A DNA stretch of 64,000 bases from an uncultured Enterobacterales bacterium (lineage in GTDB: Bacteria; Myxococcota_A; UBA796; JAFGLY01), in NCBI GenBank assembly GCA_964454135.1, contig CAYVQL010000001.1, positions 84,977 to 148,976 of the forward strand, read 5' to 3'. The notes beneath the pieces are model-generated. The model was not told the DNA's origin. It did no database searches and saw only the letters and a program-made list of their open reading frames with translations. This document shows positions 1,611 to 55,356 of the stretch, piece by piece (the stretch's first letter is position 1; the number at the start of each line of letters is the position of its first letter). The translations under genes were made by a program, and so were the position numbers.

Positions 1611-1670
1611 GATCGCAGCACGCGAAAGAGGCGGCCTGCAGGCCGCCTCCGGAGCTCGACGAGCGAGGTT

Positions 1671-8583: not shown

Positions 8584-8979
8584 GGGCCACTGGTTGGTTT
8601 CTTTTGGCCCCGACCAGATCAGCCGAGAGGGATGAGGACCAAAGGAGAGGATCTCTGCGCTCTCCGGTACGCCAGGACAAGCCTGGTGTCAGGCGGCGGC
8701 TCGCTGTTTCGGGAATTCGTTCCCTCGCAGTAGCGTTCCCCGCACTTGAGGTGGGGCCATTCGGGTGGAACCGGTCACAACTGCGCCAGTGGCGCCTCAC
8801 TGCCCGAGTTATGAGCGCCCCGCAGCGTTCACGCTCGCCGCAGGCTCTACGGCGGCACCAGCCGTGTACCCAGATCTGGGACTAGAGGTTTTTCTTCTCA
8901 TCCTGTAACAGTCCCCACCCCTGACGACTCTTGGGCGCTCAAGGGGCGGTTTCGTCCCCCAGCATCCAGGAAGTGCGCC

Positions 8980-9711
8980 ATGGCCCGCGCTCTGCTCGTC
9001 GCTCTGCTCTCTGTCGCCAGTGCGCCCTCGCTGGCCGATCCCGGTTCTGTAGGCTGTGAGCAGGGGGTAGCGCAGGCTGGGCCCATGGCGCTGGACAACG
9101 CGCTCGAGGCCTATGCCCAGCTGGACGGTGAGCTCTTCGCCGCCTCCTACGAGGTCGCGGTGCAGGGTATGGCCTGCCTGGATCGACCCCTCTCCACTGA
9201 CGAACAGGCCCAGCTCTGGCTGGTCCGAGGCCTGAAGGCCTGGCTGCGGCGGGATGAGGCCGACGTTGCGGCCTCGTTCGGCGAGCTCTTGGCGCTGCAG
9301 CCGGACTTCGCGCCCGATCCGGAGCTGGTGCCTCCCGGCAGCCGGCTGAACGACATCCTGGAGCAGGCGCGCCTCGATCGGGTTGCGGAGCCGCTGCCTG
9401 CACCGCCTGCCCTGTCGGAGCCAGACGCCTTCGTCGAGCTGGCGATGGATCCGGCCCCCGCCGTGGACAGCGCATCCCCGCTCAGCCGGCCCTCCCGGGC
9501 ACTGCTGGGCGCAGGTCTGGCCAGCGCTGCCGTGGGTGTGGCCTCGGCCGTTGTGGCCCAGCGCGCCCAGGACGGCTTCTGGTCCAGCGGGGCGCGGGAC
9601 GAGGCCGAGCGGGCCTACCAGCTGAACCGCCTGGCCGGTTTCACAGCCTACGGGGCGGCAGGGGTTTCGGCTGGCCTGGTGCTGGGCGCCGTGGTTGTGG
9701 GGAGGTGGTGA
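8980..9711 (+). CDS. Secreted/membrane-anchored hypothetical protein (signal peptide, C-terminal TM helix), in an operon with the downstream kinase.
   Basis: N-terminal signal ALLVALLSVASAPSLA, C-terminal hydrophobic helix. Its TGA stop overlaps the kinase ATG (TGATG). Confidence 0.6.
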   Translation: MARALLVALLSVASAPSLADPGSVGCEQGVAQAGPMALDNALEAYAQLDGELFAASYEVAVQGMACLDRPLSTDEQAQLWLVRGLKAWLRRDEADVAASFGELLALQPDFAPDPELVPPGSRLNDILEQARLDRVAEPLPAPPALSEPDAFVELAMDPAPAVDSASPLSRPSRALLGAGLASAAVGVASAVVAQRAQDGFWSSGARDEAERAYQLNRLAGFTAYGAAGVSAGLVLGAVVVGRW

Positions 9712-11351: not shown

Positions 11352-12565
11352 AAGGCACCGTTCTGTCGATGTTCCTGCCGCTGCTGGCCGGTTGTCTGCT
11401 GGACACGGACGATTGGGACGCTTGGGAACAGGGGCTGGCTGTGGATGATTCCACTGAAGAGCAGCCCTCGGACACGGGTACGGCGCCCGCTGACAGCGCG
11501 CTGCCCCAGGACACGGGCCTGCAGGACAGCGGGACCTTCGACACCGCGCAGGCGGCCATCGAGCTGCTGGCGGTGGAGCCCGCCTTTGGGCCCAGAGGCG
11601 GCGGCAGCCCCGTTTCGCTGCTGGGAACGGGCTTCGACGAGACGGCCAGCGTGCTCTTCGACCAGGCCGGTGCAGAGCTGGTGGCCAGCAGCGAGGAGCG
11701 CCTGGAGGTGATCACTCCGGCTGCAGCGCAGGCGGGCTGGGCGGATGTGGTGGTTCAACAGGGCCAGACGCAGAGCCAGGCGTTGCAGAGCTTCCGCTAC
11801 CTGGATCTGGACGACGCCACGGGCCAGGCCGGGGCCATGGGCGCCCTGCAGCACTTCGAGTACGTGGGCAGCTACTGGGAGCCCGGAACCCTGGACTACG
11901 GCATGCTCCAGCTCTGGTTTCCCAGTGAGGCCAGCGACCAGCGCTACGGGGACTTCTTCGCCGACCAGGCGGAGAGCTGCCGCAGCAGCGCGGGCTTCGA
12001 GCTGGACAGCAGCGGAGGGATCGACCTCGAGGCCCCCCTCGCCAGGTTGGTGGGCTCCGGGGGTACGGAGCTCGCACCCAGCTGGAATGCGAAGCAGCGG
12101 CGCCTGGACCTGACCCTGGGCCCGACCGATTTCGAGGTCGGCGCCAGCTATGCCCTCTCCTTTTCGGGGCTCTGGGACCTGCCGGACTTCGAGATCGAGC
12201 AGATCCTGCGCACACCGGCTCCCTTGGTGCTCGAGAGTCCCTTGTTGGGAGGCAGCGAGCCGCCTGAGCTGGAGCGGGACGAGCTGAGCTTTGCCTGGCA
12301 GGAGATCGAGGCCGAGCAGGTCTTGGTGTACATGGTGCGTGTCTCCTCCGACGGGCGGCAGGGACTGGAGACGCTCACATGCCTGGCGGAAAACGACGGG
12401 GCCTTCGAGGTGCCCAGCAGCGCCTGGTCCGGCTGGCAGAGGGACCAGGTGCTCTACGTCTACGTGGGCGCTTTGCGCGAGAGCGACGCCCAGGTCCCGC
12501 TGAACAACGGTGACAGCCGGGTGGCGGGGATCTACTGGAATGTGGGTGTGGTGGTGGCGCGCTGA
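11348..12565 (+). CDS. Lipoprotein with an IPT/TIG-like beta-sandwich region, function unknown.
   Basis: Signal peptide plus lipobox LLAGC. Its start overlaps the kinase stop (ATGA). Confidence 0.65.
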   Translation: MKGTVLSMFLPLLAGCLLDTDDWDAWEQGLAVDDSTEEQPSDTGTAPADSALPQDTGLQDSGTFDTAQAAIELLAVEPAFGPRGGGSPVSLLGTGFDETASVLFDQAGAELVASSEERLEVITPAAAQAGWADVVVQQGQTQSQALQSFRYLDLDDATGQAGAMGALQHFEYVGSYWEPGTLDYGMLQLWFPSEASDQRYGDFFADQAESCRSSAGFELDSSGGIDLEAPLARLVGSGGTELAPSWNAKQRRLDLTLGPTDFEVGASYALSFSGLWDLPDFEIEQILRTPAPLVLESPLLGGSEPPELERDELSFAWQEIEAEQVLVYMVRVSSDGRQGLETLTCLAENDGAFEVPSSAWSGWQRDQVLYVYVGALRESDAQVPLNNGDSRVAGIYWNVGVVVAR

Positions 12566-17999: not shown

Positions 18000-20462
18000 T
18001 TATTCCGAATCGGCCGGCGCAAACAGGAAGGGGTAGCTCACGATCACGATCCCGCCGCCCTTGGGCTCGGGGAACTGCATGCGCTGGAAGCGCGCCACCA
18101 GGCATGACTCCACCGCCGCATTGGCGAGGCTGCTCGACTTGATGGATGCGCTGGCGACCGTTCCGTCCTTGGCGATGACGAACTTCAGCACCACCTTGCC
18201 CTGCAAGCTCGGTTCCTTGGTCAGCTGTCGCTGGTAGCAGTAGCGGATGGCGTTCAGGTTGCGCCGCACCACGGCATCGATCAGCGTGCGGTCCAGGGCG
18301 CCCAGGATGATGGGAGAGCCGGAGGAATAGCGAATCTGGCCCTCGGATTTGAAGCCGAAGCTGCCGCCACCGCTGCCGTAGCCGGAGCTCCCGGAGCCGC
18401 GCCCCTTTGTGCCAAGTCCGGCGAGGGATCCCGCGCTGCCGCCCCCACCCAGGCCGCTCCCGCGCGAAGCCCGACCCGCGGAGCCGAACTGAACGCCCTT
18501 GGCGCCGATCACGCCGCCGATGCCTCCGAGCACAGCGCCGTGCGCCAGCTGGGCACCCCCCACCATGGAGACCCCCGCCGGCGCCATGTTGGGAACGCTC
18601 AGCTTCATGGTCGCCGGGGCGCAGCGGGAGGGTTGGTCGTCGACCGCGATCAGGCTTGTGTACTTGGAGACCAGGTGATGCTCCAGGGCCACCTCGGTCA
18701 CCTCCTGCCGCACCAGCTCGCCGCTGCGACCGCGCGGATACCACTCGATGTCGCGGATCTTGCGCCGCGCCCAGATGGAGCGCAGGCCCTCGTGGCGGCG
18801 CTCCACCATGGGCACCTCCAGAGGCAGCTCCCAGGCCACCCGCTCGCGACCGAGCATGCCACGCACGGTGATCACGGTGTTCAGCGTGTCCTCCTCCTCA
18901 GCCGGTTCGGGCTGGTAGCGCGCCACCACCCGTAAAGGCTGACCAGCCCAGAGATCGGGGATCTCCTTGGGGAACTGCTCGCTCACCTGCAGCGCGCCCC
19001 AGTGGATCTCCAGGTCCGACAGGGCGGGGTGGGCGATGCGGCTGTAGAACGCGTCCACAGCCTCGCCGATCTGCTTCGACCCGTAGTGGTAGATCACGTC
19101 GCCGCGGCCCATCTCCGCCAGGCCCTCCAGCAGGTAACGGTTGACGCTGGAGCCCACGCCCAGCGAGAACATGCGCGCGTTGCCCAGGTGCTGGCGCACC
19201 AGCCGGAACATCCTCTCCTCGCCGCCCACGTAGCCGTCGGTCAGCATCAAGACCAAGCGCATGGCCTGCGGATCTCCGGGCAGGTTCAGGGAGTGGATGA
19301 TCCCCTGGTCCATGTTCGTGCCGCCCCCCCTGAAGTGGCGCAGCCACTCGCGGGCCTGGGCGCGGGTGGCGGGGGTGGAGGGCTGGGGCCTCCGGAAAAG
19401 AGAGGTGGCGGCCCCGCTGAAGCGCACCAGGTTGAAGCTGTCCTCCGGGCCCATCTCGTCCAGCGCCAGGAGCACGGCCGCGCGAGCGGACTCGTAGGGC
19501 CAGCCGCTCATGGAGCCGGAGCTGTCGATCACGAAGAGCAGCTCCCTGGGCCGGGCGACGAAGTGCTCCCCCAGGTCCGGTGGTTCGAAGGTCACGGCGA
19601 TGACACCGGGTTCGTCGTCGCTGGGGCGATGGGCCAGCACCGCGGAGCGGGTGCGCTCCGCAGCCAGGGTCCAGCTGAGCACGAAGTCGCGATCGGGGAC
19701 GAGGACCTCGTCGGCCGTGCTGATCTCGGCCCCCCAGGAGCCCTCCTCCTGGACTGCGATGTCGTGGCTGTCGCTCCACAGTCCGGAGACGGGCACGCCT
19801 TCGTCGATGTAGACCGTGATGTCGACGCCCCTGCTCGGCTCGGCGACGTAGGGGGTCACCAGACGCGTGGCGTCCTCCACCCAGGGGGGCGAGAAGCGCG
19901 GGCCGGGCGTCATGGGAAAAGCCAGCTCGTAGATGCCGTCTTCGTATTGCAGCTGCTGTACGTACTGCAGCGTGATCCGGACCTCTTCACCTGGGCAGAG
20001 GTTGGCGATGCTCTGGGTGAAGAGGTTGTCGCGCTCCTGCTCCAGCAAGGCCGCCTTGCGGCCGTCTTTCTTGGCCTGCTCGTAGACCTCGCGCGCTGCG
20101 GCGCGCTCCATGATCCGGCCCTCGATCAGCCGGTCGCCGCAGACCAGGTCCATGCGGTCCACGGCGGCCATGGAAGGCAGGGGGAAGAGGTAGGTGGCCT
20201 CGAGCGTCTCTTCGTAGGGGTTGTGGAACCACTGCACCATGGTGACGCGTGCCAGGCCTGCATGGACTTCGGCCACCACGGAGCTGTGTTCCAACACAAG
20301 GGCGCCCAGGTCTTGCCCGGCCTGCACGCGGATCTCGCCCGCGGTGACCGGATCGCTCGCCAGGACCTCTGGCGGGTAGATGATGGGGTCGCGAAGATAA
20401 GGGATTTCGTCGGGAGCCTGAGCCATCACGGCGCCCGCCAGGGCCAGCGTGGGAAGGAGCAT
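18000..20462 (-). CDS. Secreted VIT plus von Willebrand factor A domain protein with a Gly/Ser-rich linker and a TonB-C-like AgmX/PglI-type C-terminal domain.
   Basis: Signal peptide MLLPTLALAGAVMAQA. vWA MIDAS motif LFVIDSSGSMSG. C-terminal block LDRTLIDAVVRRNLNAIRYCYQRQL...GKVVLKFVIAKDGTV...VESCLVARFQRMQFPEP. Confidence 0.8.
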   Translation of the reverse strand: MLLPTLALAGAVMAQAPDEIPYLRDPIIYPPEVLASDPVTAGEIRVQAGQDLGALVLEHSSVVAEVHAGLARVTMVQWFHNPYEETLEATYLFPLPSMAAVDRMDLVCGDRLIEGRIMERAAAREVYEQAKKDGRKAALLEQERDNLFTQSIANLCPGEEVRITLQYVQQLQYEDGIYELAFPMTPGPRFSPPWVEDATRLVTPYVAEPSRGVDITVYIDEGVPVSGLWSDSHDIAVQEEGSWGAEISTADEVLVPDRDFVLSWTLAAERTRSAVLAHRPSDDEPGVIAVTFEPPDLGEHFVARPRELLFVIDSSGSMSGWPYESARAAVLLALDEMGPEDSFNLVRFSGAATSLFRRPQPSTPATRAQAREWLRHFRGGGTNMDQGIIHSLNLPGDPQAMRLVLMLTDGYVGGEERMFRLVRQHLGNARMFSLGVGSSVNRYLLEGLAEMGRGDVIYHYGSKQIGEAVDAFYSRIAHPALSDLEIHWGALQVSEQFPKEIPDLWAGQPLRVVARYQPEPAEEEDTLNTVITVRGMLGRERVAWELPLEVPMVERRHEGLRSIWARRKIRDIEWYPRGRSGELVRQEVTEVALEHHLVSKYTSLIAVDDQPSRCAPATMKLSVPNMAPAGVSMVGGAQLAHGAVLGGIGGVIGAKGVQFGSAGRASRGSGLGGGGSAGSLAGLGTKGRGSGSSGYGSGGGSFGFKSEGQIRYSSGSPIILGALDRTLIDAVVRRNLNAIRYCYQRQLTKEPSLQGKVVLKFVIAKDGTVASASIKSSSLANAAVESCLVARFQRMQFPEPKGGGIVIVSYPFLFAPADSE

Positions 20463-27990: not shown

Positions 27991-29523
27991 GTGACATCGG
28001 AGAACTGGCGGATGTTGTCGGCACCTGCCTTTGGACCTCGAAACCTGGCGCTGGCGGCCCTCTTGGGCGTGACCGGCTGCGCGGCGCCAGAGGTCAGCTT
28101 CACCTGCGCCGAGGACGAGGGTTTCTGCGAGTTGGCCGAGATCATGAAAGACGATCGCCCCCAGGCCTCGGGTGCGGACGTGCAGAAGGTCTACCTCTAC
28201 CAGGGCGTGGAGATCCCCCTGATGGAGAACCTGCAGGCCGTGGACGAGATCAACGCCACGGTGGTGGCGGGCCGCGACACCCTGCTGCGCGTCTTCGTGG
28301 ATCTGAACGACGACTGGGTCGACCGCAACATCTTCGCCCGCATCTGGTACTACCGCAACGGGGTGGCCTTCGACGCCGACCAATCCGAGGAGCGCTTCAT
28401 GTCCGTCTCGTCCACGGACGAGACGCTGGATTCCAGCTTCAACTTCTTCCCCCCGCCCAGCTACATCTCGCCCGATATCGGTTGGTCCGTGGAGCTGGTG
28501 GAGGGCGACGCCGCCGCGGCCACGGGCATGCCGGGCTACGCCCAGTGGCCCACCAGCAGCTACCAGCCCTTCCCGGCCACCGAGGGCGCCGACATGCTGC
28601 GCATCCTGCTGATCCCGGTGCGCTACGACGCCGACGGGTCGGGCCGGCTGCCCCCCACCGACGAGTCTACGGTGGAGTTCTACCGGCAGTACATGCACAA
28701 GGTCTACCCCGCCGCCGAGGTCCAGGTGGACGTGGGCGACGAGTTCCCCTGGAGCCAGCAGGTGGGCGCCTCCGACACGGGCGGTTGGGCGGCGCTCTTG
28801 TCCGCCATCACCGACAGCCGCGAGTCCCAGGGTGCCGATCCCGACCAGTACCTCTACGGCGTCTTCAACGCGGCCGATACCTTCGGCGAGTTCTGCGCCG
28901 CGGGCTGCATCGCCGGCTTGAGCAATATGGCCACTGGCGCCAACGACAGCTGGAACCGCGCCTCCATCGGCGTGGGCTTCGGCGGCGAGACCACGGCCAG
29001 CACCATGATCCACGAGGTGGGCCATGCCCACGGCCTGGACCACGTGGACGGCGGCTGCTACTCCGGCGGCGGCGAGGCGGGATACCCCTACAAGGGCGGC
29101 TACATCGGCTCGCGGGGCTACGACATGGTCAAGGGGACCCTGCTGGATCCCGACGCCTACTGGGACATGATGACCTACTGCGAGCCGACCTGGATCAGCG
29201 ACTATATGTACGACAAGCTGCACACCCGGGTGAAGGGCGTCTGCGACTCCTTCTGGGCCGATGGCGTGCTCTCGGACTGGAGCTCGGTGTGGGTCTACCC
29301 CGACGGCAGCCTGGCCTGGGGCGCCGAGCGCCACTTGCTGGGGCCCCCCGAGGGCCCGACGCGCGAGCTGGAGCTGCTGGGGCGCGACGGCCAGCTGTTG
29401 GACGTGGTGCAGGCGGTCTTTACGCCCTTCGACGCCGCGGACGGCGGCTCGCTGGTCTTCCCGCAGCAGCCGCGCGACGTGGTGGCCGCGCGCTACGGCG
29501 GTCGGGTGGCGCACCGCCGCTGA
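27991..29523 (+). CDS. Secreted zinc metalloprotease lipoprotein (HExxHxxGxxH zincin).
   Basis: Lipobox LLGVTGC. Zinc-binding motif MIHEVGHAHGLDH. Confidence 0.8.
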   Translation: MTSENWRMLSAPAFGPRNLALAALLGVTGCAAPEVSFTCAEDEGFCELAEIMKDDRPQASGADVQKVYLYQGVEIPLMENLQAVDEINATVVAGRDTLLRVFVDLNDDWVDRNIFARIWYYRNGVAFDADQSEERFMSVSSTDETLDSSFNFFPPPSYISPDIGWSVELVEGDAAAATGMPGYAQWPTSSYQPFPATEGADMLRILLIPVRYDADGSGRLPPTDESTVEFYRQYMHKVYPAAEVQVDVGDEFPWSQQVGASDTGGWAALLSAITDSRESQGADPDQYLYGVFNAADTFGEFCAAGCIAGLSNMATGANDSWNRASIGVGFGGETTASTMIHEVGHAHGLDHVDGGCYSGGGEAGYPYKGGYIGSRGYDMVKGTLLDPDAYWDMMTYCEPTWISDYMYDKLHTRVKGVCDSFWADGVLSDWSSVWVYPDGSLAWGAERHLLGPPEGPTRELELLGRDGQLLDVVQAVFTPFDAADGGSLVFPQQPRDVVAARYGGRVAHRR

Positions 29524-31607
29524 TCCGCGGGCTGGACGAAGCCGCGGTCCAGCAAGAGGTGCAGCAGCCCTTCTCCTTCGCCCATGTCCTCCAGGGCTGC
29601 GACCAGCTCTGAGAGAGCCATGCCCCGACGCAATGGGCCCGCAAGCAGCGCCTGCAGGGCGGGGCGCAGGCCCAGCACCGTGGGGGATGGGCCGCGGAGC
29701 TGGGGTGCCAGGGGCTCGTTGGAGAGGGCGGGCACCGGGGCTGGATGGGCCTGATCAGGCCGGGAGGGGTTGAAGAGGAAGGGACGGGCCCGCAGCCAGG
29801 CCGGCGCCTGCAGCAGCGGATCGTCGGCCGCCCAGTCGCGCCAGGCGGCCGTGCCCGGTTGCGGCCAGCGGGGCAATGGGATGGGGGCCGATGCCTCGAA
29901 GTCCTGGGCCTGCAGCAGGTGGCGGTGCAGCACGCGGTGGCTGCGGCTCAACTCGTCCGTCTGCCAGGTGGAGAGTCGCAGCTGGGGCTCGGCCTGCAGG
30001 GCCGCGTGCCAGAGCTGGGCCGCTGTCTGCGCCGTGAGTCCGTCGTCCGTACGGAACTCGTGGTCCAGGCTGAGGTCGCCCGGGGGCTTGTCCTCGACCT
30101 GCAGCCCCGCCTCCCCGGCCTGCAGGGGCGAGCCTGCGGGCAGGTTGAAGGGGAAGATGGCCAGCAGGTCGGCGCGCCGGCGCAGACGCGCGGCCAGGGC
30201 CAGGCTGCGTCGGCGCTGCGCCGGGGTCTCGCCGGGGTAGCACAGGATGAAGTTGAGCTTGAGGGGGATGCCTGCCCTGTGGCATCGCTCGACGCAGCGC
30301 GTGACGGCCGCCAGGTCTCCGCCACGGCCCATGGCGTTTCGCAGCTGCTCGTCGCCGGATTCCACGCCTAGGAAGAGCATGGCCAGGCCGGCCCGCGCCA
30401 GCTCGGAGACCAGGCCGGCCTGGTCGAGGTCTTCGGGTCGGGCGTCGCCGTACCAGGCTGGGCGGGCTTCGACGGACAGACCGAGCAGGAGCCGCCCGAA
30501 GCGGCGCAGGAAGGCGGGGCTCAGGCTGTCGTCCGTCAGGTAGAAGCAGCGGGCGCCGTAGCGGCGCCCCAGCTCCTGCAGCTCCTGGAACACCTCTTCT
30601 GCACGGCGCGGCTGAAAGGCGGTGCGGCCATGATGGGCGCAGTAGCGGCAGCGCCCCCAGTAGCAGCCGCGGGAGGCCATGGTGGGCAGCACGGGCTCGG
30701 GACAGAGGTAGCGAGGCAGATCCCGGCGCTCGAAGACCGGCATGGCCTCGTGGGAGGGGGGAGGTCCCGCTGCGCGCAGGCCGTGGGGTGCCTGGCCCTG
30801 CCCAAGCTCGCTCAGCAGCTCGTCCAGGGCTCCCTCACCTGGTCCGGCCACGACCACGTCCAGGGAGGGGAAGGCCCGCAGCAACTCGGCGGCCCTGGGA
30901 CCAAGGTGGCTGGGATAGGTTCCGCCCAGGCAGACGCAGCAGCCGGGCGCCCGCGCCTTGCAGGCGCGGGCCAGCAGCAGGGCGGGCAGCAGCTGATCGG
31001 CGAACATGACCGAGATGCCCAGCAGGTCCGGGGCTCCGTCTTCCAGGCTGCGCTCCAGCTCCGCGCGGATGGCCTCGTCGAAGAGACTGCGCGCTGCGCT
31101 GCCTGCCGCCAGCTGGCGCTGGAGGAGCGCGACGCTCAGCCGCTCTCCAAGCTGCAAGCCGTGGAAGCGTAGCGCCAGCGGGGCATGGCGGGCGCTCAGG
31201 ATCTCCAGGGCCAGGCGCAGGATGTGGGCGGCTTGGGCGTAGTCCTGCAGGTCGTCGAAGCGGCTGCGTTGACGCATCACTGCCAGGGCGTCCTGCACCC
31301 CATGCAGCACGGCCGGGCCGCAGAGCAGGCAGCGGGCCAGCCGCTGGTAGCGGGCTTGCTGCGATGGCGCGGACGAGGGGCGCGGCGCGGCGGACAGCGC
31401 GCGCTCGAGCGCTCGCAGCTCTTCCTCCAGCTGTTCCAGGGCTCGCTGCAGGACCTCGCGGTGCAGAACTCCGAGGAAGAAGCGCAGGTTGCCGTCGAGC
31501 TGCCGGACATCGTGGCCTTGGCTGCGCAGGTGACCTGTCAGCCTGGCCAGCCCATGGGGGGGCAGGGTGGGATCGGCCACCGGGGGGAAGTGCAGGCGGA
31601 TCTTCAT
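29493..31607 (-). CDS. B12-binding-domain radical SAM protein with a roughly 200 aa Pro-rich C-terminal extension.
   Basis: N-terminal cobalamin-binding-like fold (MKIRLHFPPV...). Radical SAM cluster motif CYWGRCRYC. Start verified at the ATG at 31607. A 17 nt gap separates it from the upstream PilZ gene. Confidence 0.8.
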   Translation of the reverse strand: MKIRLHFPPVADPTLPPHGLARLTGHLRSQGHDVRQLDGNLRFFLGVLHREVLQRALEQLEEELRALERALSAAPRPSSAPSQQARYQRLARCLLCGPAVLHGVQDALAVMRQRSRFDDLQDYAQAAHILRLALEILSARHAPLALRFHGLQLGERLSVALLQRQLAAGSAARSLFDEAIRAELERSLEDGAPDLLGISVMFADQLLPALLLARACKARAPGCCVCLGGTYPSHLGPRAAELLRAFPSLDVVVAGPGEGALDELLSELGQGQAPHGLRAAGPPPSHEAMPVFERRDLPRYLCPEPVLPTMASRGCYWGRCRYCAHHGRTAFQPRRAEEVFQELQELGRRYGARCFYLTDDSLSPAFLRRFGRLLLGLSVEARPAWYGDARPEDLDQAGLVSELARAGLAMLFLGVESGDEQLRNAMGRGGDLAAVTRCVERCHRAGIPLKLNFILCYPGETPAQRRRSLALAARLRRRADLLAIFPFNLPAGSPLQAGEAGLQVEDKPPGDLSLDHEFRTDDGLTAQTAAQLWHAALQAEPQLRLSTWQTDELSRSHRVLHRHLLQAQDFEASAPIPLPRWPQPGTAAWRDWAADDPLLQAPAWLRARPFLFNPSRPDQAHPAPVPALSNEPLAPQLRGPSPTVLGLRPALQALLAGPLRRGMALSELVAALEDMGEGEGLLHLLLDRGFVQPADQRRCATRPP

Positions 31608-31624
31608 GGGGGCGGCGCGGGCTG

Positions 31625-32821
31625 CTAGGCCCCCCGCTCGGCCTCCGTGGCCAGCTCGGCACGCATGCGTTGGTCCATGCTGAAGGCCAGCCCGGCCCCT
31701 ACGGGCAAGGGGGCCACCACCACGGCCTTGCAGCGCAGCCGCGCCCCCGAGGGAAGCTGGAACTCCACGTCGAGCCTCATGCGCGGCTGATCCAGGCCCC
31801 TGGCCTTGACGAAGAGACCCCCATTGCGCAGGTGGCTCTGGTAGTCCTTGACGAAGTTGCTCTGCCGGCCGTAGCGGATCACGATCCACGTGGCGCCGTC
31901 GCGCTTGTCCACGCTCACCAGGGGATCGAGCTGGCGCGTGCGGAGCCCGTTGCGCGAGGAGCTGGCTGCGCCGGGCTGCGCTCCCTGGGAGGCGGCGTCA
32001 GGCCCGGGTGCCGTCGGGGCGGGCGTGGGCGCGGCCCGGGGCGGCGCTGGCTGGGGAGGAGCGGTGGCGGCCCGGGGCGGCGCCGGCGTGGGAGGAGCCG
32101 GGGCGGCCTGGGGCGGCGCCGGCTCGACAGCGGAGGGCGCTGGCTGGGGAGGCGGGGGTGCTGGGGGCGATCGGCCCTCGATGGTGACCTTCGCGCCGGA
32201 TTCCGTCCAGGAGGCGGGTTTGCTGGGTGCCGCGGGTGCCCCCGACTGGGAGCTCAACCCCCGACCCAGGGCCGCCGAGATGGCGGAACGCACGCCGCTG
32301 TGAGCCGAGCCGCCGCTGCCACCCTCGGTGGACAGCCCGAAATCGCCGCCGATGCCCTTCTTCTTCTTCTTGAAGAGCTGCTCGCGACGGGCGCGGCGTT
32401 CGTTGATGCGCTCGATGGCCAGCTTGGTCTCGGCCTCGCTGGCCGTGCCCGCCTTGTCTGCGAACATGTCGCGGATGTATTTCTCCGGGTTGCGCTCTAC
32501 GCGCTGGGATGTGCCTCCCAGCTTCTGGTCTTCCATCCAGCCGCGCATGATCTCGAGGTCGGCCTCGGGCATGCTGCTGATGGAGCCTATGAAGGTCTGC
32601 ATGGCCTCGCCCCGGTAGGGCGTGACGGTGCGCACGGTCAGCATGCCCATGATGGTCTCTTCGTAGCCCTTCAGCTCCATGCGCCAGGCCATGGTCTCTC
32701 CGACCTGCAGAACGGAGGCGATCTGGAAGGTGATCTCCCGCTCGTTCATGTCGATGACGTAGCCGAAGGCCAGCCCGTGGGGAGACTGCAGCGCAAACAT
32801 GACGTTCAGGGGTTCGGCCAT
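31625..32821 (-). CDS. Protein with two PilZ-like domains (N- and C-terminal) separated by a Pro/Ala-rich linker.
   Basis: Both ends show a PilZ-like beta-barrel pattern. A lysine run and a PAPP-repeat linker sit between them. Strong RBS GGAGAGGA. Confidence 0.65.
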   Translation of the reverse strand: MAEPLNVMFALQSPHGLAFGYVIDMNEREITFQIASVLQVGETMAWRMELKGYEETIMGMLTVRTVTPYRGEAMQTFIGSISSMPEADLEIMRGWMEDQKLGGTSQRVERNPEKYIRDMFADKAGTASEAETKLAIERINERRARREQLFKKKKKGIGGDFGLSTEGGSGGSAHSGVRSAISAALGRGLSSQSGAPAAPSKPASWTESGAKVTIEGRSPPAPPPPQPAPSAVEPAPPQAAPAPPTPAPPRAATAPPQPAPPRAAPTPAPTAPGPDAASQGAQPGAASSSRNGLRTRQLDPLVSVDKRDGATWIVIRYGRQSNFVKDYQSHLRNGGLFVKARGLDQPRMRLDVEFQLPSGARLRCKAVVVAPLPVGAGLAFSMDQRMRAELATEAERGA

Positions 32822-32869
32822 GATCCTCTCCTGGACGCTATGATACCACCAACCGCTGCAGGGAGGAGA

Positions 32870-33958
32870 TCAACCCTGGCGCGCCTGGATGGCCATCAGC
32901 TCGTCATCGCGCGTTTGGGCCGAGATGGCCCGCTGGGCGTAGAGCTGTTGCAGGTGCTCGCGGTAGGTCACACCTGCTTCCGACTTGCTGGTGTAGATAT
33001 TGAGCTTGCCCAGCTCGCCGGCGCGCAGCACCGTGCGGATGGCCGTGGTGGGGAAGATCACCTCGGCGCCCAGCACGCGGCCGCCCCGAATGCCCGGCAG
33101 CAGGCGCTGTGTGATGATGGCCGAAAGCCCCGAGGCCAGCGAGTAGCGGATGCGCGCCTGGTGGTCGCTGTGGATCGAGCCGATGACCCGCGCCATGGTG
33201 GAGATGGTGTCGTCGGCGTGCATCGTGCTGATCACCAGGTGCCCCATCTCGGCGGCCTTCAGCACCTGCTCGATGGTCTCGGGATCGCGCATCTCCCCTA
33301 CGTAGACCACGTCCAGGTTCTCGCGCAGGGCGGCGCGCACGCCGCCGGAGAAGGAGTCCACGTGCATGCCCACCTCGCGCTGGATGAACATGCCCTTGTG
33401 ATCGTGGAAGATGTACTCGATGGGATCTTCCAGGGTGAGCAGGGTGGCCGGGCGCGTGCGGGCGATGTGGTCCAGCAGGGCCACGGCGGTGACGGTCTTG
33501 CCCTGGCCCGTGGCGCCGGAGATCAGCACCAGGCCGTGCTTGAGCGACATCAGCCGCGGCAGCAGCTTGGGCGGCAGACCCAGCTCCTCCAGGGGCATGA
33601 TGTCCTGGGCGATGCGGCGGATCACGGCGTAGATGCCGTTGTTGGCCATGCCCACGTGCACGCGGTAGCGATTGGTCGCCTCGGCGTGCACCAGGTCCAC
33701 CTCCCGCTTGACCCGGAAGCGGTCCAGATCGCTCTGAGTGAAGAAACAGGCCATGAAGTGGCGCAGGTGCTGGTCGGTCAGCGGGTCGGTCTTGATGCGG
33801 GTGATCTGGCCGTCGATCTTGAAGATCACCGGCTCGCCGACCTTGAGGTAGAAATCGGCGGCGTTGGCCTCTTCCATCCAGAGCAGGGTGTCGCGGACAC
33901 TGACCGTGCGTTCGGCCGAGCGGAGGAAGGGCTTTCTGTAGGCTTTCATGTTGGCCAT
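32870..33958 (-). CDS. PilT/PilU-family type IV pilus retraction-type ATPase paralogue.
   Basis: Walker A GATGQGKT, LTLEDPIEY, Walker B and Asp box VVYVGEMRD, His box HLVISTMHA. GGAGG RBS ahead of the ATG at 33958. The rest of the 1337-aa ORF is rejected. Confidence 0.85.
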   Translation of the reverse strand: MANMKAYRKPFLRSAERTVSVRDTLLWMEEANAADFYLKVGEPVIFKIDGQITRIKTDPLTDQHLRHFMACFFTQSDLDRFRVKREVDLVHAEATNRYRVHVGMANNGIYAVIRRIAQDIMPLEELGLPPKLLPRLMSLKHGLVLISGATGQGKTVTAVALLDHIARTRPATLLTLEDPIEYIFHDHKGMFIQREVGMHVDSFSGGVRAALRENLDVVYVGEMRDPETIEQVLKAAEMGHLVISTMHADDTISTMARVIGSIHSDHQARIRYSLASGLSAIITQRLLPGIRGGRVLGAEVIFPTTAIRTVLRAGELGKLNIYTSKSEAGVTYREHLQQLYAQRAISAQTRDDELMAIQARQG

Positions 33959-34054
33959 CTCACCCTCCGACGAATTGGCTGCGAAGCGATCTGCTATCAC
34001 GAAACGGGGTCCTGTCGCTCCGGTTATGGGGGCCGTCCTTCCCAGGGGTTGCCC

Positions 34055-35488
34055 ATGCCCGAGACCATTCTTCGTCGTTTTCGCCAGGTCGCGCCCACGG
34101 TCGATTATTGCGCGCTGCGGCTGGTGGAGGAGCAGGGCGAGGCCCTCACCGTGCGGCGCGATGTGCTGCAGCCTGTCCGCAGCGCACAAGAACGGGGCGC
34201 CATGATCACGGTCCACCACGGCGCAGGTGCTGGCTACGCGGCCACCAGCGATCTGAGCGTCGCCGGGCTGCGGCGGGCGGCGCAGCGGGCCGCCGAGTGG
34301 GCGCAACGCAGCGCAGCGCACTCGGTGATCGACTTCTCGGCCATTGAGATGCCGCGACCCGTGGGCTCGTACCAAGCAAGCGAGGAGCAGCCCTGGTCGG
34401 ACCAGCCCCTGGCCGAGCGCGTGGCCATGTTGCTGCAGCGCAGCCGCAGCCTGCGCATCGACGAACGCATCGTGGACTGGTCGGTCTCGCTCTGGCGCGT
34501 GCGCCACGAGACCCTCTTCGCCACGGCCGATGGCGGACTGGCCCAGCAGGGCTTGAACCTGGTCACGCCGGAGATCCGGGCCGTGGCCAGCGCCGGCGGC
34601 GACGTGCAGAAGCGCACGCTGGGGGGCTCGGGCATCTCGCAGCAGGGCGGGCTGGAGGTGCTGGACCGCGTGGGCTTCCATCGGGCTGGGCCCGAGCTGG
34701 CCCAGCAGGCTCTGGAGCTGCTCTCGGCGCCCGATTGCCCCTCGGGCACCATGGACCTGTTGCTGGCCCCGGACCAGATGATGCTGCAGGTGCACGAGTC
34801 CATCGGCCACCCCCTGGAGCTGGATCGCATCCTGGGCGACGAGCGCTCCTACGCCGGCACCAGCTTCGTCAGCCTGGACATGTTCGGCAGCTACCGCTAC
34901 GGCAGCCGGCTGCTGAACATCACCTTCGATCCTGGCGACCCCCACGAATTTGCCAGCTACGCCTTCGACGACGAGGGCAGCCAGGCGCGGCGGGTGCACA
35001 TCATCCGCGACGGCCTGCTGGAGCGCCCCCTGGGCGGCGTCATCAGCCAGGCCAGGGCCGGCCTGCCCGGCACGGCCAACAGCCGAGCCCAGAGCTGGTA
35101 TCGCCCACCCATCGACCGCATGGCCAACCTGAACCTGGAGCCGGGCGATTCCAGCTTCCAGCAGCTGGTCTCGCAGGTGGAGCGCGGCGTCTTCATGCGC
35201 ACCAACGCCTCCTGGTCCATCGACGACTCGCGCAACAAGTTCCAGTTCGGCTGCCAGCGGGCGCGCCTGATCCGCGACGGCCAGCTGGGCCAGGTCGTGA
35301 AGAATCCCAACTACCGCGGCATCTCCGCCACCTTCTGGCGCAACCTGAAGGGCGTGGGCGACCGCAGCACCTACGAAGCCCACGGCACGCCCTGGTGCGG
35401 CAAGGGCGAGCCCAACCAGATCATTCGCGTGGGGCACGCCGCGCCGGTGGCGCTCTTCGGCGCTGTCGATGTCTTCGGGGGGGCCTGA
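34055..35488 (+). CDS. tldD: TldD-family metalloprotease.
   Basis: HESIGHPLELD zinc motif and overall TldD/PmbA fold signature. Start at the ATG at 34055. Confidence 0.85.
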   Translation: MPETILRRFRQVAPTVDYCALRLVEEQGEALTVRRDVLQPVRSAQERGAMITVHHGAGAGYAATSDLSVAGLRRAAQRAAEWAQRSAAHSVIDFSAIEMPRPVGSYQASEEQPWSDQPLAERVAMLLQRSRSLRIDERIVDWSVSLWRVRHETLFATADGGLAQQGLNLVTPEIRAVASAGGDVQKRTLGGSGISQQGGLEVLDRVGFHRAGPELAQQALELLSAPDCPSGTMDLLLAPDQMMLQVHESIGHPLELDRILGDERSYAGTSFVSLDMFGSYRYGSRLLNITFDPGDPHEFASYAFDDEGSQARRVHIIRDGLLERPLGGVISQARAGLPGTANSRAQSWYRPPIDRMANLNLEPGDSSFQQLVSQVERGVFMRTNASWSIDDSRNKFQFGCQRARLIRDGQLGQVVKNPNYRGISATFWRNLKGVGDRSTYEAHGTPWCGKGEPNQIIRVGHAAPVALFGAVDVFGGA

Positions 35489-35491
35489 GCC

Positions 35492-36820
35492 ATGCAGAAT
35501 TCCCAAGAGCGTTTCTACGAGCTCTTCGAGCAGCTCCAGGGTCGGCTGCGCGGCGACGAGGTGCTGCTGGCCAGCCACTACGGCGAGGACTCGGAATTCG
35601 TGCGGCTCAACCGCGGTGCGGTGCGCCAGGCGGGCCACGTGGCCCAGGCCACCATGGACCTGCGCTTGATCCAGGGTAAGCGGCATGCCTCGGCCGAGCT
35701 CAGCCTGGGCGGCGATGCGGCCGACGGATCGCGCCTGGCTGCCCTGCTGGAGCGCCTGCGGGGCCAGCTGCCCCATTTGCCCGAGGATCCGCACCTGCTC
35801 TACGCCCAAGAGCCTCGCTCCAGCGAGCGCCGCGGCCAGGATCGCCTGCCACCGGCCGCCGATGCGGTGGACGGGCTGTTGGACGCCGCCCAGGGCCTCG
35901 ACCTGGTGGGCATCCTGGCTGCGGGCGCCATCCGCCGCGGCTTTGCCAGCTCCCTGGGCCAGCGCAACTGGTTCACCTCCCACCCCTTCTCCCTGGACTA
36001 CTGCCTCTACCACCAGGGCGACAAGGCCGTGAAGTGCAGCTACGCCGGCTTCCATTGGCGCATCGAGGAGCTGGAGCGCCAGCTGGGGCAGGCCCGCCAG
36101 CAGCTGATGGCCCTGGCGCGGCCGGCGCGGCGCATCGAGCCCGGGCGCTACCGGGCCTACCTGACCCCAGCCGCCCTGCAGGAGATCACCACCTTGCTGG
36201 CCTGGGATGGCTTCGGCGCCCGCGCCCAGCAGACGGGCGATACCCCGCTGTTGCGCCTGGCTCGGGGCGAGGACCAGCTGCACGAGTCGGTGTCTCTCCG
36301 CGAGAACACGGCCGATGGCATCGCCCCGGACTTCGGCGAAGAGGGCTTCATCAAGCCCCATAGCGTGCCCCTGGTGGAGAAGGGGCGCTGGGCCGGGGCC
36401 TTGATCTCGCCGCGCTCGGCCCGCGAGTTCGGCCTGCGGACCAACGGGGCGTCCGAGAGCGAGTTCCCCGTCTCGCTGGACATGGCCCCCGGCGATCTGC
36501 CCCGGGAACAGGCCCTGGAGCGCCTGGGCACGGGCATCTGGATCGGCAACCTGTGGTATCTCAACTACTCGGACCGCCCGGCCTGCCGCATCACGGGCAT
36601 GACCCGCTTCGCCACCTTCTGGGTGCAGGACGGCCGTATCGAGGCCCCCATCGAGGTGATGCGCTTCGACGACACCGTCTACCGCATGCTGGGCAGCCAG
36701 CTGGAGGCCCTGAGCTCTGAGCGCGACTTCATGCCCAGCCCCGAGACCTACTTCCGGCGTTCCTCGGACAGCGCGCGGCTGCCGGGCGCCCTGCTGCGGG
36801 AGATCGTCTTCACCCTGTGA
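35492..36820 (+). CDS. pmbA: TldE/PmbA-family protein (partner of TldD).
   Basis: TldD/PmbA family blocks without the HExxxH motif. Starts 3 nt after the tldD stop. Confidence 0.8.
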   Translation: MQNSQERFYELFEQLQGRLRGDEVLLASHYGEDSEFVRLNRGAVRQAGHVAQATMDLRLIQGKRHASAELSLGGDAADGSRLAALLERLRGQLPHLPEDPHLLYAQEPRSSERRGQDRLPPAADAVDGLLDAAQGLDLVGILAAGAIRRGFASSLGQRNWFTSHPFSLDYCLYHQGDKAVKCSYAGFHWRIEELERQLGQARQQLMALARPARRIEPGRYRAYLTPAALQEITTLLAWDGFGARAQQTGDTPLLRLARGEDQLHESVSLRENTADGIAPDFGEEGFIKPHSVPLVEKGRWAGALISPRSAREFGLRTNGASESEFPVSLDMAPGDLPREQALERLGTGIWIGNLWYLNYSDRPACRITGMTRFATFWVQDGRIEAPIEVMRFDDTVYRMLGSQLEALSSERDFMPSPETYFRRSSDSARLPGALLREIVFTL

Positions 36821-50761: not shown

Positions 50762-53374
50762 TCAGTGCTCCCCGAGGGCAACGAGGGGAGCCAGAGGCGC
50801 CGGTTCGTGCCGGAGTGGCTGCAGGCGGAGCTCCAGCGGCACAGGCAGCGTGGCGAGGTGCAGCTCGGGCGGACCGGGGAGGCCGGGCCTCAAGGGTGCT
50901 TCACCGTGCCCCGACTCCGGCTCTTCTAGGGTCAGGTACAGACTGAACTCATCCCCGCAGGTGGCGTAGTCGAAGCTGGGGCAGAACTCCACCTTCGAGC
51001 TGAATTCCTCCCCATCGTAGCCGTCGGGTGGCGTCTCGCAGTCCCCGCCTTGCATCACGAGGTCCACGGCGTTGTCCGCATAGCTGTTGCCTGAGAGTAG
51101 GGCCGAGGCCTTGTCCAGGAACAGGCCCGCGCCCAGACCGTCCAAGAGCTCGTTGTTCTCCAGCAAGAGGCCCGAGCTTCCGTCCCAGGCCGTCACGCCT
51201 TCCCCGGCGTAGACCGCGTCGCCGCACTTGGTCAGGCTCTGCCGGGTCCAGCCCTCTCCGCCTTGGATGGTGTTGTCGGTGAGTGAGTAGTTGCCTTCAC
51301 CGGAGAGCCAGACGCCGGCGATGGGATTGTCTTTGATCACGGTGTCGGTGACCGACAGGGATGGAGGGCCTCCCAACCAGGGCTCGGCGTAGATACCGAC
51401 GCCGCCACCGAGGTTCTCCTGCTCGGTGGTGCCTTCGATGTGGCACTCGGCGAGCTGGAGGACCGAATCGACCACCAGGACCGCTCCTGCGAACTGGTTG
51501 CTCTTGATCTCGCAACCCGAGCAGGTGAACTGGGTGCCTTCTCTCGTGACGTATATCCCGGGTCCGTCGTTCAAGGAGGCCTCGACGCCCGTCGCCACCA
51601 CAGATGCCCCGGACTCGGCGAATATGCCGGTGCCGACGGTGAAGAGCTCTCCGCGCTTCGTGGAGACGACCCTCGTATCCTGGAGGGTGACCGTGGTGTA
51701 TGAGCCGAATGCGATCACGCCCGAGGTGGTGTTCCCGATGACCTCGCAGGCCTCCGCTTCGAGGTTCGCGCCGAGGTAGACATCGATACCGTAGCCATGC
51801 TGCCCCTTCTCGTCTGGCTGAGTGTCCTCGATGGTGGTCTCTCTCAGAGTGACCGAGGTGCCGAGGTCATCTGCGACCACGCCCGCAGCGGTGTTCCTGG
51901 TGACCTCGCAGGCCTCCGCGTCCAAGCTCGCGCCGTTGTGGACGTAGATGCCGAGACCGAGCGAGCTTGTCTCGTCTGGCAGGGTGTCCTCGATGACAGT
52001 CTCTCTCAGGGTGACCGAGGTAGTGGAGTCGGATGCGGCCACTCCGGTAGTGGCGTTCCCTCTGACCTCGCAGCCTTCCGCGTCCAGGCTGGCACCATCG
52101 TAGACATAGATGCCGAGACCGAGCGAGCCGGTATCGTTGGGTCGGGTGTCCTCGATGGCGGTCCGCAAAAGGGTGATCGAGGTGCCGGAGTCGTACGCGA
52201 GCACACCCGCAGCGGTGTTCCCCTTCACCTCGCAGGCCTCCGCGTGCAGACACGCTCCCTCCTTGACTCGGATGCCATATCCGCCATCCTGGTTTCCATC
52301 GGGCTGGGTGTCCTCGATGGTGGTCTCCCTCAGGGTGACCGCGGTGCCGGAGTCGTACGCGAGCACACCCGCAGAGGTGTTCCCCCTCAGCTGGCAGGCC
52401 TCCGCGTCCAGGCTCGCGCCCTCCGTGGCCGTGATGCCGTATCCGTACGTTCCATCATCGTCGGGCTTGGTATCCACGATGGCGGTCCGCCGGAGGGTGA
52501 CCGAGGTGTCGGAGCCGACCGCGATCACGCCCCCTGCGGTGTTCCCCGTCAGCTCGCAGGCCTCCGCGTCCAGGCTCGCGCCATTGGTGATCTGGACTCC
52601 GTTCCCGTAGCCGCCTTTTTCGTCAGGCCGAGTGTCCTCGATGGTGGTCTGACGGAGGGTGATCGATGCGCCGGAGCCCTGTACGGCTGCACCCGCCGTG
52701 GTGTTCCCCTTCAGCTCGCAGCCCTCCATCGTGAGCGCGGCCGCATGGATCCCTGCCTGGTAGGCCCAGACACCGACGAACTCGTTCTCTACAACCTTCG
52801 AATCACGAAATGCCACGTTCCCCGATTCGACCAGCACCCCGATGTACGACGACCCGGTCACTGTCACGCCAGAGACCTCCACCTCCGAAGTGACGATGTT
52901 CGCAGCGATCCCCGGCGTGCTCTCGTTCCCTGAGCTGGCGTCGATGACGACCAGCTCGCTGCAGCGTCCAGCCAGGTGCACGCCGCCATGACCACGGCCC
53001 AGCTCCAGCGTCTCCGGGTAGGCCCCCGCCGCCACCGCCACCAGTCCGCCGTCCGCGTCACCCGCCACATCCAGTCCCGCCTGGATGGAGGTGAAGGGCG
53101 CGGACTCGCTGCCATCGCCACCTGCCGCAGCGGCGATGTCCACGTAGATCGTGCTCTCGTCCAGCTCCAGGTTCCCCCATGTGCCGGTTCCGCAGGCGGC
53201 GGGAACGCACACGCCGTCGTCGTCGAGGTGGCCGGTGTCGCAGCCGGGATCGCTGTCGGGCGCGGGGCCGGTGTCTTGGGTGGTGCCGCTGTCCTCCGTC
53301 GAGGGCCTCCCGCGCTTGTCCTTGTCACAGGCGAGGAGGTGGAGCGGGACGATGAGGGCGAGGGCGTGGCGCAA
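50762..53374 (-). CDS. Right-handed parallel beta-helix repeat lipoprotein.
   Basis: Seven or more tandem 53-54-aa units (GASLDAEACEVxGNTxAGVxAxDSGTSVTLRETTIEDTxPD...). Putative TTG start gives the lipoprotein signal (M)RHALALIVPLHLLAC. Confidence 0.7.
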   Translation of the reverse strand: MRHALALIVPLHLLACDKDKRGRPSTEDSGTTQDTGPAPDSDPGCDTGHLDDDGVCVPAACGTGTWGNLELDESTIYVDIAAAAGGDGSESAPFTSIQAGLDVAGDADGGLVAVAAGAYPETLELGRGHGGVHLAGRCSELVVIDASSGNESTPGIAANIVTSEVEVSGVTVTGSSYIGVLVESGNVAFRDSKVVENEFVGVWAYQAGIHAAALTMEGCELKGNTTAGAAVQGSGASITLRQTTIEDTRPDEKGGYGNGVQITNGASLDAEACELTGNTAGGVIAVGSDTSVTLRRTAIVDTKPDDDGTYGYGITATEGASLDAEACQLRGNTSAGVLAYDSGTAVTLRETTIEDTQPDGNQDGGYGIRVKEGACLHAEACEVKGNTAAGVLAYDSGTSITLLRTAIEDTRPNDTGSLGLGIYVYDGASLDAEGCEVRGNATTGVAASDSTTSVTLRETVIEDTLPDETSSLGLGIYVHNGASLDAEACEVTRNTAAGVVADDLGTSVTLRETTIEDTQPDEKGQHGYGIDVYLGANLEAEACEVIGNTTSGVIAFGSYTTVTLQDTRVVSTKRGELFTVGTGIFAESGASVVATGVEASLNDGPGIYVTREGTQFTCSGCEIKSNQFAGAVLVVDSVLQLAECHIEGTTEQENLGGGVGIYAEPWLGGPPSLSVTDTVIKDNPIAGVWLSGEGNYSLTDNTIQGGEGWTRQSLTKCGDAVYAGEGVTAWDGSSGLLLENNELLDGLGAGLFLDKASALLSGNSYADNAVDLVMQGGDCETPPDGYDGEEFSSKVEFCPSFDYATCGDEFSLYLTLEEPESGHGEAPLRPGLPGPPELHLATLPVPLELRLQPLRHEPAPLAPLVALGEH
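51300..52700. repeat. Roughly 160-bp tandem DNA repeats (seven or more units) inside the beta-helix gene.
   Basis: Recurring CGCAGCGGTGTTCC...CTCGCAGGCCTCCGCGTCCAGGCTCGCGCC blocks at about 51886, 52046, 52206, 52366 and 52526. Confidence 0.8.
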
Positions 53375-55342: not shown

Positions 55343-55356
55343 TCTGGATAGTGTCC

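Follow-up and report, generated by a model that had tools for sequence, protein, structure and literature searches.

A conserved pair of a PilT-like ATPase and a two-domain PilZ-fold protein, accompanied in a single lineage by a cobalamin-type radical SAM enzyme

The window investigated in this study is a 64,000-nucleotide stretch of contig CAYVQL010000001.1 (positions 84,977 to 148,976) of an uncultured bacterium, which has a composition of about 70% GC and whose genes were called with guidance by the GC content at third codon positions (GC3) combined with translation. Three consecutive genes on the minus strand of this window encode a PilT-like hexameric ATPase, a protein with two PilZ folds and a cobalamin-binding radical S-adenosylmethionine (SAM) enzyme. 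On one side they diverge from a tldD/tldE gene pair, on the other they face a convergent gene for a metzincin-like protease. The original prediction, made from the sequence of the same region, had described the three genes as an apparent operon that would link a PilT-like motor, under the control of cyclic diguanylate monophosphate (c-di-GMP), with the radical SAM enzyme. The identities that it had assigned to these genes and to tldD/tldE are confirmed by our analysis, and the coordinates of the open reading frames (ORFs) and the gaps of 48 nucleotides between the PilT-like and the PilZ-like gene and of 17 nucleotides between the PilZ-like and the radical SAM gene are exactly as it had given them. 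It is the pair of ATPase and PilZ-fold protein that is conserved in relatives, and we consider it probable, with moderate confidence, that the locus combines this conserved pair with one lineage-specific radical SAM passenger that would be functionally unrelated to its neighbours.

The distinction between the pair and the third gene is reflected in the contexts of the relatives, which were collected from loci in a protein collection and in genomes and from a tblastn map, with one further relative found via its ATPase. Eight distinct related lineages (L004/5/11, L007-9, L010/12, L013, L014, L015 and L108/9) share an order in which the PilT-like gene is followed by the PilZ-like gene, on which a gene for an M66-like protease converges, with TldD and TldE divergently upstream in seven of them (the pair is missing in L013). 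Counting the window, the same-strand adjacency of PilT-like and PilZ-like genes, at distances of 4–70 nucleotides, is found in all nine lineages and the divergent arrangement with an intergenic region of similar size in eight of the nine, whereas the flanks outside this five-gene core differ. In every one of the eight relatives, the PilZ-like gene directly meets or overlaps the protease gene, and in none of them is a radical SAM gene placed in between. Called gene coordinates are available for seven of these lineages, of which six show a 3' overlap of 4–17 nucleotides. At this junction, the radical SAM gene is confined to the window's own population, where the junctions of the locus recur at more than 99.9% DNA identity in three separate metagenome assemblies (JGI 3300007511, JGI 3300009008 and ENA ERZ23498639), which rules out an assembly chimera. 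With the gene at this site in one population and in none of the eight relatives, which all retain the PilT-like and PilZ-like genes, the trio is syntenic in no relative and the proposed system of motor and radical SAM enzyme is thus not supported. In contrast, the link between the PilT-like and the PilZ-like protein is strengthened by their adjacency in all nine lineages, although its c-di-GMP-dependent part has become doubtful, as described below.

Table 1. Features of the locus and their positions in the window
Feature	Position	Strand	Length	Remarks
M66/metzincin-like lipoprotein metalloprotease	27991..29523	+	~500 aa	convergent to radical SAM gene
Cobalamin-type (class B) radical SAM enzyme	29493..31607	-	704 aa	lineage-specific; Pfam hits
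Spacer from stop codon of PilZ-like gene to start codon of radical SAM gene	31608..31624	-	17 nt	upstream edge of lineage-specific segment
Two-domain PilZ-fold protein	31625..32821	-	398 aa	second gene of conserved pair; AlphaFold2, Foldseek, TIGR02266
PilT-like hexameric secretion-type ATPase	32870..33958	-	362 aa	first gene of conserved pair; T2SSE, TIGR01420
Divergent intergenic region between PilT-like gene and tldD	33959..34054	.	96 nt
TldD-family metalloprotease, catalytic subunit	34055..35488	+	477 aa	PmbA_TldD domains, HESIGH
TldE/PmbA-like partner	35492..36820	+	442 aa	PmbA_TldD_3rd; without HExxxH

The coding status of the frames at the locus is backed by GC3 values of 0.87–0.93. Direct reading of the spacer ahead of the radical SAM gene reveals no Shine-Dalgarno-like GGAGG, no terminator-like site was found on the minus strand between positions 29300 and 34300, and no sigma-70 consensus was found in the 96 nucleotides that separate the PilT-like gene from tldD. 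Rfam elements, including cobalamin and c-di-GMP riboswitches, are absent from the whole window at gathering threshold. Of the apparent operon of three genes, what stands is that their co-transcription is plausible in the window organism in light of the short gaps and the lack of a predicted terminator, and the radical SAM gene would probably be read through from the transcript of the PilT-like and PilZ-like genes. No ORF for a precursor peptide fits the 17-, 48- or 96-nucleotide gaps and none that is convincing was found between positions 27650 and 28100, in agreement with the original prediction, which had noticed no obvious candidate. A reading of the locus as a defence system was rejected, since the PADLOC match of the ATPase is a weak P-loop similarity (mad8, E = 7e-6).

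The properties of the ATPase place it close to the retraction ATPases of type IV pili. The protein matches the Pfam family T2SSE with 121 bits, its best solved relatives are the PilT chains 2ewv, 2gsz and 5fl3 (E about 1e-60), and it aligns with positions 5–333 of the 343 positions of the PilT/PilU model TIGR01420, with a score of 292.4 bits that remains below the cutoff of 319.1 bits. The Walker A motif (GATGQGKT), the Walker B motif with the Asp box (DVVYVGEMRD) and the His box (GHLVISTMH) are all intact, and its size corresponds to that of secretion ATPases devoid of the PilB-type N-terminal domain (about 350–370 residues). The canonical C-terminal motif of PilT is AIRNLIRE, in place of which residues 306–313 of the window protein read AIRTVLRA, with four of the eight positions being the same. 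The protein thus resembles PilT and PilU in its full-length alignment, size, nucleotide-binding motifs and best structural matches, but it differs in its score below the family cutoff, in its altered C-terminal motif and in having no pil genes nearby. The ATPases of the PilZ-linked relatives are 73–76% identical to that of the window and 81–92% identical among themselves. Homologues at larger distance (67, 62 and 58% identity) are solitary and reside in unrelated contexts without PilZ-like or TldD genes, thus illustrating that the pair of PilT-like and PilZ-like genes defines one clade. At least three members of the wider PilT-like clade share environmental samples of the window's sample series (L102 and L109), namely the window population, a PilZ-linked relative of 76% identity and an orphan of 62% identity, which implies that related uncultured lineages coexist.

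The second protein of the pair escapes detection by Pfam, where neither the whole sequence nor its separated domains match any family, including PilZ (PF07238), up to an E-value of 10. Its C-terminal 70 residues show a sub-threshold match to the PilZ-related paralogue model TIGR02266 (E = 1.4e-5), which is common to all nine aligned homologues. The fold was approached with an AlphaFold2 model that was built on an eight-sequence alignment, and a separate model was made of the N-terminal part. The full model predicts beta-barrels at residues 7–83 and 301–381, each followed by a helix and both with a predicted local distance difference test (pLDDT) score of 80–95, in a protein that begins with a barrel and helices (residues 1 to about 185) and ends with a TIGR02266-like barrel (about residues 300–398), the two being connected by a variable, disordered linker rich in proline. 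The N-terminal domain alone has as its top Foldseek matches in the PDB MotI/DgrA, the PilZ domain of Alg44, the PilZ-domain structure 4xrn, PA4608 and YcgR, with a template modelling (TM) score of at most about 0.7 and an E-value of 5e-4, and the top matches of the full model are PilZ domains as well. The claim of a dual-PilZ protein is thus borne out at the level of the predicted fold only, in the form of two barrels, whereas in sequence both domains are degenerate, match no Pfam family and do not conserve the motifs for c-di-GMP. The C-terminal barrel carries a conserved HL[RK]xGG sequence in place of the c-di-GMP motif D/NxSxxG, and RxxxR is not conserved among the homologues, with an RNGLR upstream in the C-terminal domain being a peculiarity of the window protein. 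In the N-terminal barrel, neither of the two motifs is found in the homologue alignment. The most conserved part of the protein are its N-terminal 185 residues, where the sequences AWRMELKGYxETIMG and WMEDQ are invariant. Control of the ATPase by gating with c-di-GMP, as it had been envisaged, appears doubtful in view of the missing Pfam match and the two motifs that are not conserved.

The PilZ-like protein has few homologues, namely eight in a large protein collection and six loci in 185,579 species-representative genomes, and in all of these cases it is encoded beside a member of this PilT-like clade. A 173-residue paralogue that comprises the N-terminal PilZ-fold domain alone (48% identity) is encoded at positions 23-544 of L016, which belongs to the same metagenome-assembled genome (MAG) as L013, where it adjoins a gene for an FG-GAP repeat protein and is located away from any PilT-like gene. 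In full-text literature searches, we have found no description of a pair of PilZ and PilT proteins. The closest parallel is provided by Xanthomonas and Pseudomonas, where a motif-less type II PilZ protein binds the pilus ATPase PilB (PMC8389850). As in this PilZ-PilB(-FimX) system (X. citri XAC1133, P. aeruginosa PA2960), a PilZ-fold protein without c-di-GMP motifs is in the window encoded together with a hexameric pilus-type ATPase, and the interaction that has been established for the small PilZ protein and PilB would, by analogy, have its counterpart in the window pair. The C-terminal barrel of the window protein belongs to a related type, TIGR02266. The two systems differ in several respects: the partner of the window protein is a PilT-like and thus retraction-type ATPase lacking the N-terminal domain of PilB to which PilZ binds, two barrels and a long disordered linker take the place of a small PilZ protein, and neither a FimX-like gene nor pilus genes are found within the window. 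A search of the PDB with a profile of the C-terminal domain retrieved as its only PilZ matches the type IV pilus PilZ proteins of Xanthomonas (4f48_B and 3dsg_A), at a non-significant E-value of about 1.3 and 12 bits. A second parallel concerns the motor-regulating proteins YcgR and MotI (DgrA), with MotI being the top Foldseek match, which share the architecture of two barrels, there formed by a PilZN and a PilZ domain. In contrast to the window protein, these bind c-di-GMP via RxxxR and D/NxSxxG motifs and act on flagellar stators. As a further difference, the barrels of the window protein are set apart by about 100 residues of helical structure and about 110 residues of Pro-rich linker.

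These features suggest a conserved two-gene unit consisting of a PilT-like hexameric ATPase and a protein that carries two degenerate PilZ-fold barrels joined by a Pro-rich linker, which is placed between a divergent TldD/TldE pair and a convergent secreted metzincin-like lipoprotein. In light of the invariant adjacency in nine lineages and of the analogy to the motif-less PilZ proteins that bind PilB, the PilZ-fold protein would serve as binding partner, adaptor or regulator of the PilT-like ATPase, in a manner independent of c-di-GMP, and would probably not be a canonical receptor of this nucleotide. The non-significant resemblance of its C-terminal barrel to the PilZ proteins of Xanthomonas would be consistent with such a role as adaptor.

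The genes on either side of this unit belong to known protease families. TldD contains the first, second and third PmbA_TldD domains of Pfam and a HESIGH sequence at residue 247, whereas its TldE-like partner matches PmbA_TldD_3rd with 65 bits, lacks a HExxxH motif and has no match among NCBIfam models. In their organization as an adjacent two-gene pair, in the restriction of HExxxH to TldD and in the three Pfam domains they resemble the TldD/TldE (PmbA) heterodimer. However, with a score of 90 bits TldD stays far below the cutoff of 513 bits of the equivalog model NF008006, and the pair is better described as a divergent paralogue type than as a demonstrable housekeeping, microcin-processing enzyme, as the scores fall below equivalog cutoffs. 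Nothing ties TldD/TldE to the radical SAM gene; they co-occur with the PilT-like gene instead. Their presence had been taken as a hint at a conceivable role in the modification of peptides or proteins, which has lost its footing, since both are kept in relatives that have no radical SAM gene and since no precursor ORF was found. The convergent protease shows a Pfam match to Peptidase_M66 (25.6 bits), a lipobox (LGVTGC) and the metzincin-type sequence HEVGHAHGLDH, and its orthologues in the eight relatives, at 47–55% identity, converge on the PilZ-like gene as its direct neighbour in each case.

The radical SAM enzyme is unambiguous in its general class, with Pfam matches to Radical_SAM (PF04055, 63.6 bits) and to the B12-binding domain (PF02310, 34.9 bits against a cutoff of 32.1) that both exceed their cutoffs, followed by a Pro-rich C-terminal third. 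Its motif GCYWGRCRYC is of the type CX4CX2C instead of CX3CX2C, and the three cysteines (C315, C320 and C323) are invariant in an alignment of its family. In an exhaustive HMMER search, this family comprises 441 cluster representatives at 50% identity (E < 1e-30), most of which have 600–750 residues, with an alignment that extends from residue 1 to about 540. The pattern GCYWx[RK]Cx[FY]C is present in 132 of the 149 top representatives and is matched by more than 600 metagenome stretches. The names given to these relatives in their source databases were of no help, as they are uninformative and include one automatic label of the 'YgiQ' type. Since none of the invariant residues of the family alignment is altered in the window protein, it is probably active. 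Within the B12-binding domain, near residue 215, positions 30957-30967 of the window differ from L003 by three G/C changes and from L107 by one G/C and one A/T change, which may be a micro-variable patch or reflect ambiguity of sequencing or assembly in a GC-rich run.

With respect to its subfamily, the enzyme can be assigned to class B, whereas its description as a methyltransferase is unproven. The best NCBIfam model is TIGR03975, which describes C-methyltransferases of ribosomally synthesized and post-translationally modified peptides (RiPPs), at 86.3 bits compared to a cutoff of 281.85; it is also the best model for most of the clade, ten members of which score between 93 and 168 bits, and neither these ten nor the window protein reach the cutoff of any curated NCBIfam model. 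When searched against the PDB, the family profile retrieves the unnamed radical SAM entry 9ccb (1e-20) and OxsB (5ul2, 3e-20), then AprD4, TsrM, TokK and CysS, while a direct phmmer search with the window protein finds 9ccb alone and OxsB surfaces with the family profile only. The OxsB sequence TSRGCDYSRCTFC aligns in register with the CX4CX2C motif of the window protein. OxsB is a documented cobalamin radical SAM enzyme with a CX4CX2C motif that is not a methylase (PMC9204698), and it is this precedent, together with the failure to pass any methylase model, that leaves the label of a methyltransferase unproven. Sequence comparison thus places the window enzyme in a large, uncharacterised class B clade with an OxsB-like CX4CX2C motif. 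The motif, which is found in the same register, reads SRGC-YW-GRC-xFC in the clade and SRGC-DY-SRC-TFC in OxsB, the enzyme of oxetanocin A biosynthesis (5UL2), and both proteins are about 700 residues long with an N-terminal extension preceding the cobalamin domain. Differences to OxsB concern the alignment, which is confined to the cobalamin and radical SAM core (residues 176–463), and the absence of a neighbouring OxsA-like HD phosphohydrolase in the window. The B12-binding and radical SAM core is also shared with the methylases of TIGR03975 and with PhpK, ApyD, TokK, CysS and TsrM. Compared to RiPP C-methyltransferases, the window locus contains no precursor peptide and has unrelated neighbours, in addition to the score below the cutoff.

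The neighbourhoods of family members point in the same direction as the synteny of the pair. The closest homologues, P0002 and P0161, are 38–39% identical to the window protein, and both genes diverge from a gene for an Asp/Glu racemase and are not found beside pil genes. At their loci (L001, positions 957-3137 and 10001-12145; L097, positions 6452-9346), the two racemases are 75% identical, and L001 additionally encodes a SAM methyltransferase immediately downstream as well as another B12 radical SAM enzyme, whose gene is located 7 kb upstream. Neither the racemase nor the methyltransferase partner is present in the window. A further 80 family loci have heterogeneous neighbours, which include many pairs of radical SAM genes in tandem, a group of loci encoding a PhzF-like and a 412-residue protein, a cupin set and mcrBDGA, and neither at these loci nor next to the two closest homologues is there a gene for a PilZ-like protein or for TldD/TldE; at one of the 80 loci, an unrelated PilT homologue is located at a distance of about 6 kb. 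The unrelated neighbours of the nearest homologues and of the 80 further family members thus argue against a coupling of motor and radical SAM enzyme also from the side of the enzyme family. Two of the contexts are each found at several loci. In L017 (8001-9719), L020 (8001-9719) and L024 (6506-8140), members of the clade with a length of 715–735 residues, which are the best-scoring metagenome matches to the window protein, are encoded just downstream of a complete mcrB-mcrD-mcrG-mcrA cluster, whose McrA was confirmed by Pfam, suggesting an uncharacterised enzyme that modifies McrA or is associated with methanogenesis. In L054, L056, L059, L061 and L077, two tandem paralogous radical SAM genes are accompanied by a gene for a protein of about 100 residues, by the 412-residue protein, which has no Pfam match, by a PhzF-like isomerase and by further conserved genes, in a set that looks like a small-molecule biosynthetic cassette.

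Several observations weigh against the account of a conserved pair with an unrelated passenger. The 17-nucleotide spacing and the lack of a terminator suggest that the radical SAM gene is probably co-expressed with the pair, and a functional link newly acquired in the window lineage is conceivable. The physical interaction between the PilT-like and the PilZ-like protein is proposed by analogy, the conservation of the five-gene block could reflect inherited synteny among fairly close relatives, and no type IV pilus genes (pilB, pilC, pilMNOPQ or pilin) are found in the 64-kb window or in the flanks of the relatives. Concerning the origin of the radical SAM gene, its composition is only mildly atypical and thus not decisive for horizontal transfer, with a codon bias of 0.44 that is like that of the PilZ-like gene (window median about 0.56) and a GC3 of 0.87, and its flanks contain neither direct nor inverted repeats beyond the level of chance. 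Together with the absence of a transposase or integrase nearby, the latter led us to reject insertion by a mobile element. Finally, in a neighbour-joining tree of the PilT-like ATPases from PilZ-linked lineages, with orphans as outgroups, the window ATPase is sister to all other linked lineages, which group together with a bootstrap value of 100%, and the entire linked clade is separated from the orphans with a value of 87%. A single gain of the radical SAM gene in the window lineage is thus as parsimonious as a single loss in the sister clade. The same tree, the missing insertion scars and a composition inside the range of the window would all suit a gene that was ancestral and lost by a precise deletion in the ancestor shared by the eight relatives, with the window preserving the original state, an alternative to which we assign a small but appreciable probability. 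It is opposed by the low identity of the closest homologues and their unrelated contexts, by orphan PilT-like outgroups that have no radical SAM neighbour, and by the need for a clean deletion that restores overlapping convergent stop codons, which is less likely. We thus favour gain over loss, given that the nearest homologues are only 38–39% identical and located elsewhere, that the gene fills a site where its neighbours otherwise overlap, and that its 3' end, instead of stopping where the closest homologue ends, runs on for its last 31 nucleotides into the convergent protease gene, as if an ORF had been dropped between abutting genes. As a passenger, the gene would be a single ORF without flanking scars, set exactly between the convergent 3' ends in the window population, and its product would most likely be an independent member of the CX4CX2C clade with a function unrelated to that of its neighbours.

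The relationship between the ATPase and the PilZ-fold protein could be questioned altogether if the PilT-like, PilZ-like, TldD/TldE and protease genes were adjacent by inherited order, and if the PilZ-fold protein worked with another partner. Such a coincidence could be accommodated by the fair closeness of all relatives (with PilT-like proteins at least 73% identical), by genes shared in the wider flanks (DUF3604, AFOR and an alpha/beta hydrolase), by the missing upstream TldD/TldE in L013 and by the N-domain-only paralogue that the MAG of L013 encodes away from PilT genes. Yet the flanks beyond the five-gene core vary while the PilT-like and PilZ-like genes remain adjacent throughout, and the exclusive occurrence of the PilZ-like protein next to this PilT-like clade, in both the protein collection and the genomes, speaks against a lack of linkage, which we regard as rather improbable. 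We consider it very unlikely that the trio forms a true functional unit, in which the radical SAM enzyme would modify a protein or peptide substrate handled by the motor and its PilZ-like partner and perhaps processed by TldD/TldE. The shared strand, the narrow gaps, the missing terminator, the adjoining TldD/TldE genes, the RiPP C-methyltransferase model as nearest curated relative and the location of some family members directly after mcrBDGA, consistent with protein-modifying members, would all agree with such a unit. However, the trio recurs neither in the relatives of the pair nor at the loci of the enzyme family, there is no space for a precursor ORF, and all RiPP and methylase models are far below their cutoffs. 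The least probable scenario, which is of speculative character, views the pair as a hitherto undescribed two-component motor module independent of type IV pili, with the PilZ-fold protein as an adaptor devoid of c-di-GMP motifs that recruits or gates the PilT-type hexamer, and the radical SAM enzyme as captured into its transcript in the window lineage and acting on one of the two proteins or on their substrate.

Outside the locus, three further regions of the window deserve mention. Between positions 20259 and 20400, a tract of 140 nucleotides contains 13 of the 18 differences to an otherwise 99.9% identical ENA scaffold, which are mostly spaced in multiples of three. This segment has the appearance of strain-level recombination within a coding region, which implies that the VIT/VWA gene (called at 18000-20240 on the minus strand) starts further upstream than called. 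At positions 55351-57006, the plus strand encodes an RtcR-type sigma-54 activator; RtcB is not annotated among the window genes scanned, and the relative L010 has RtcB near TldD/TldE. Finally, an 870-residue right-handed beta-helix or NosD-like protein (50762-53374, minus strand) stands out in the window with a codon-bias score of 0.21, by far the lowest value compared to the median of about 0.56, and with a GC3 of 0.83, which is likewise the lowest, so that its gene would be preferred over the radical SAM gene as a candidate for recent horizontal acquisition.

Collectively, our study describes the combination of motor and cobalamin radical SAM enzyme as a juxtaposition in one lineage and not as a system, which thus provides no basis to seed a search for RiPP or protein modification. 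The radical SAM clade, for which no curated family model exists, and which combines the motif of OxsB with the location of some of its members beside mcrA, is worth classifying by itself. At the locus, the residual interest concerns a clade-wide orphan PilT-like ATPase and its accompanying two-barrel PilZ-fold protein, which is invisible to Pfam. If both proteins interact, the partnership known from PilZ and PilB would extend to retraction-type ATPases.

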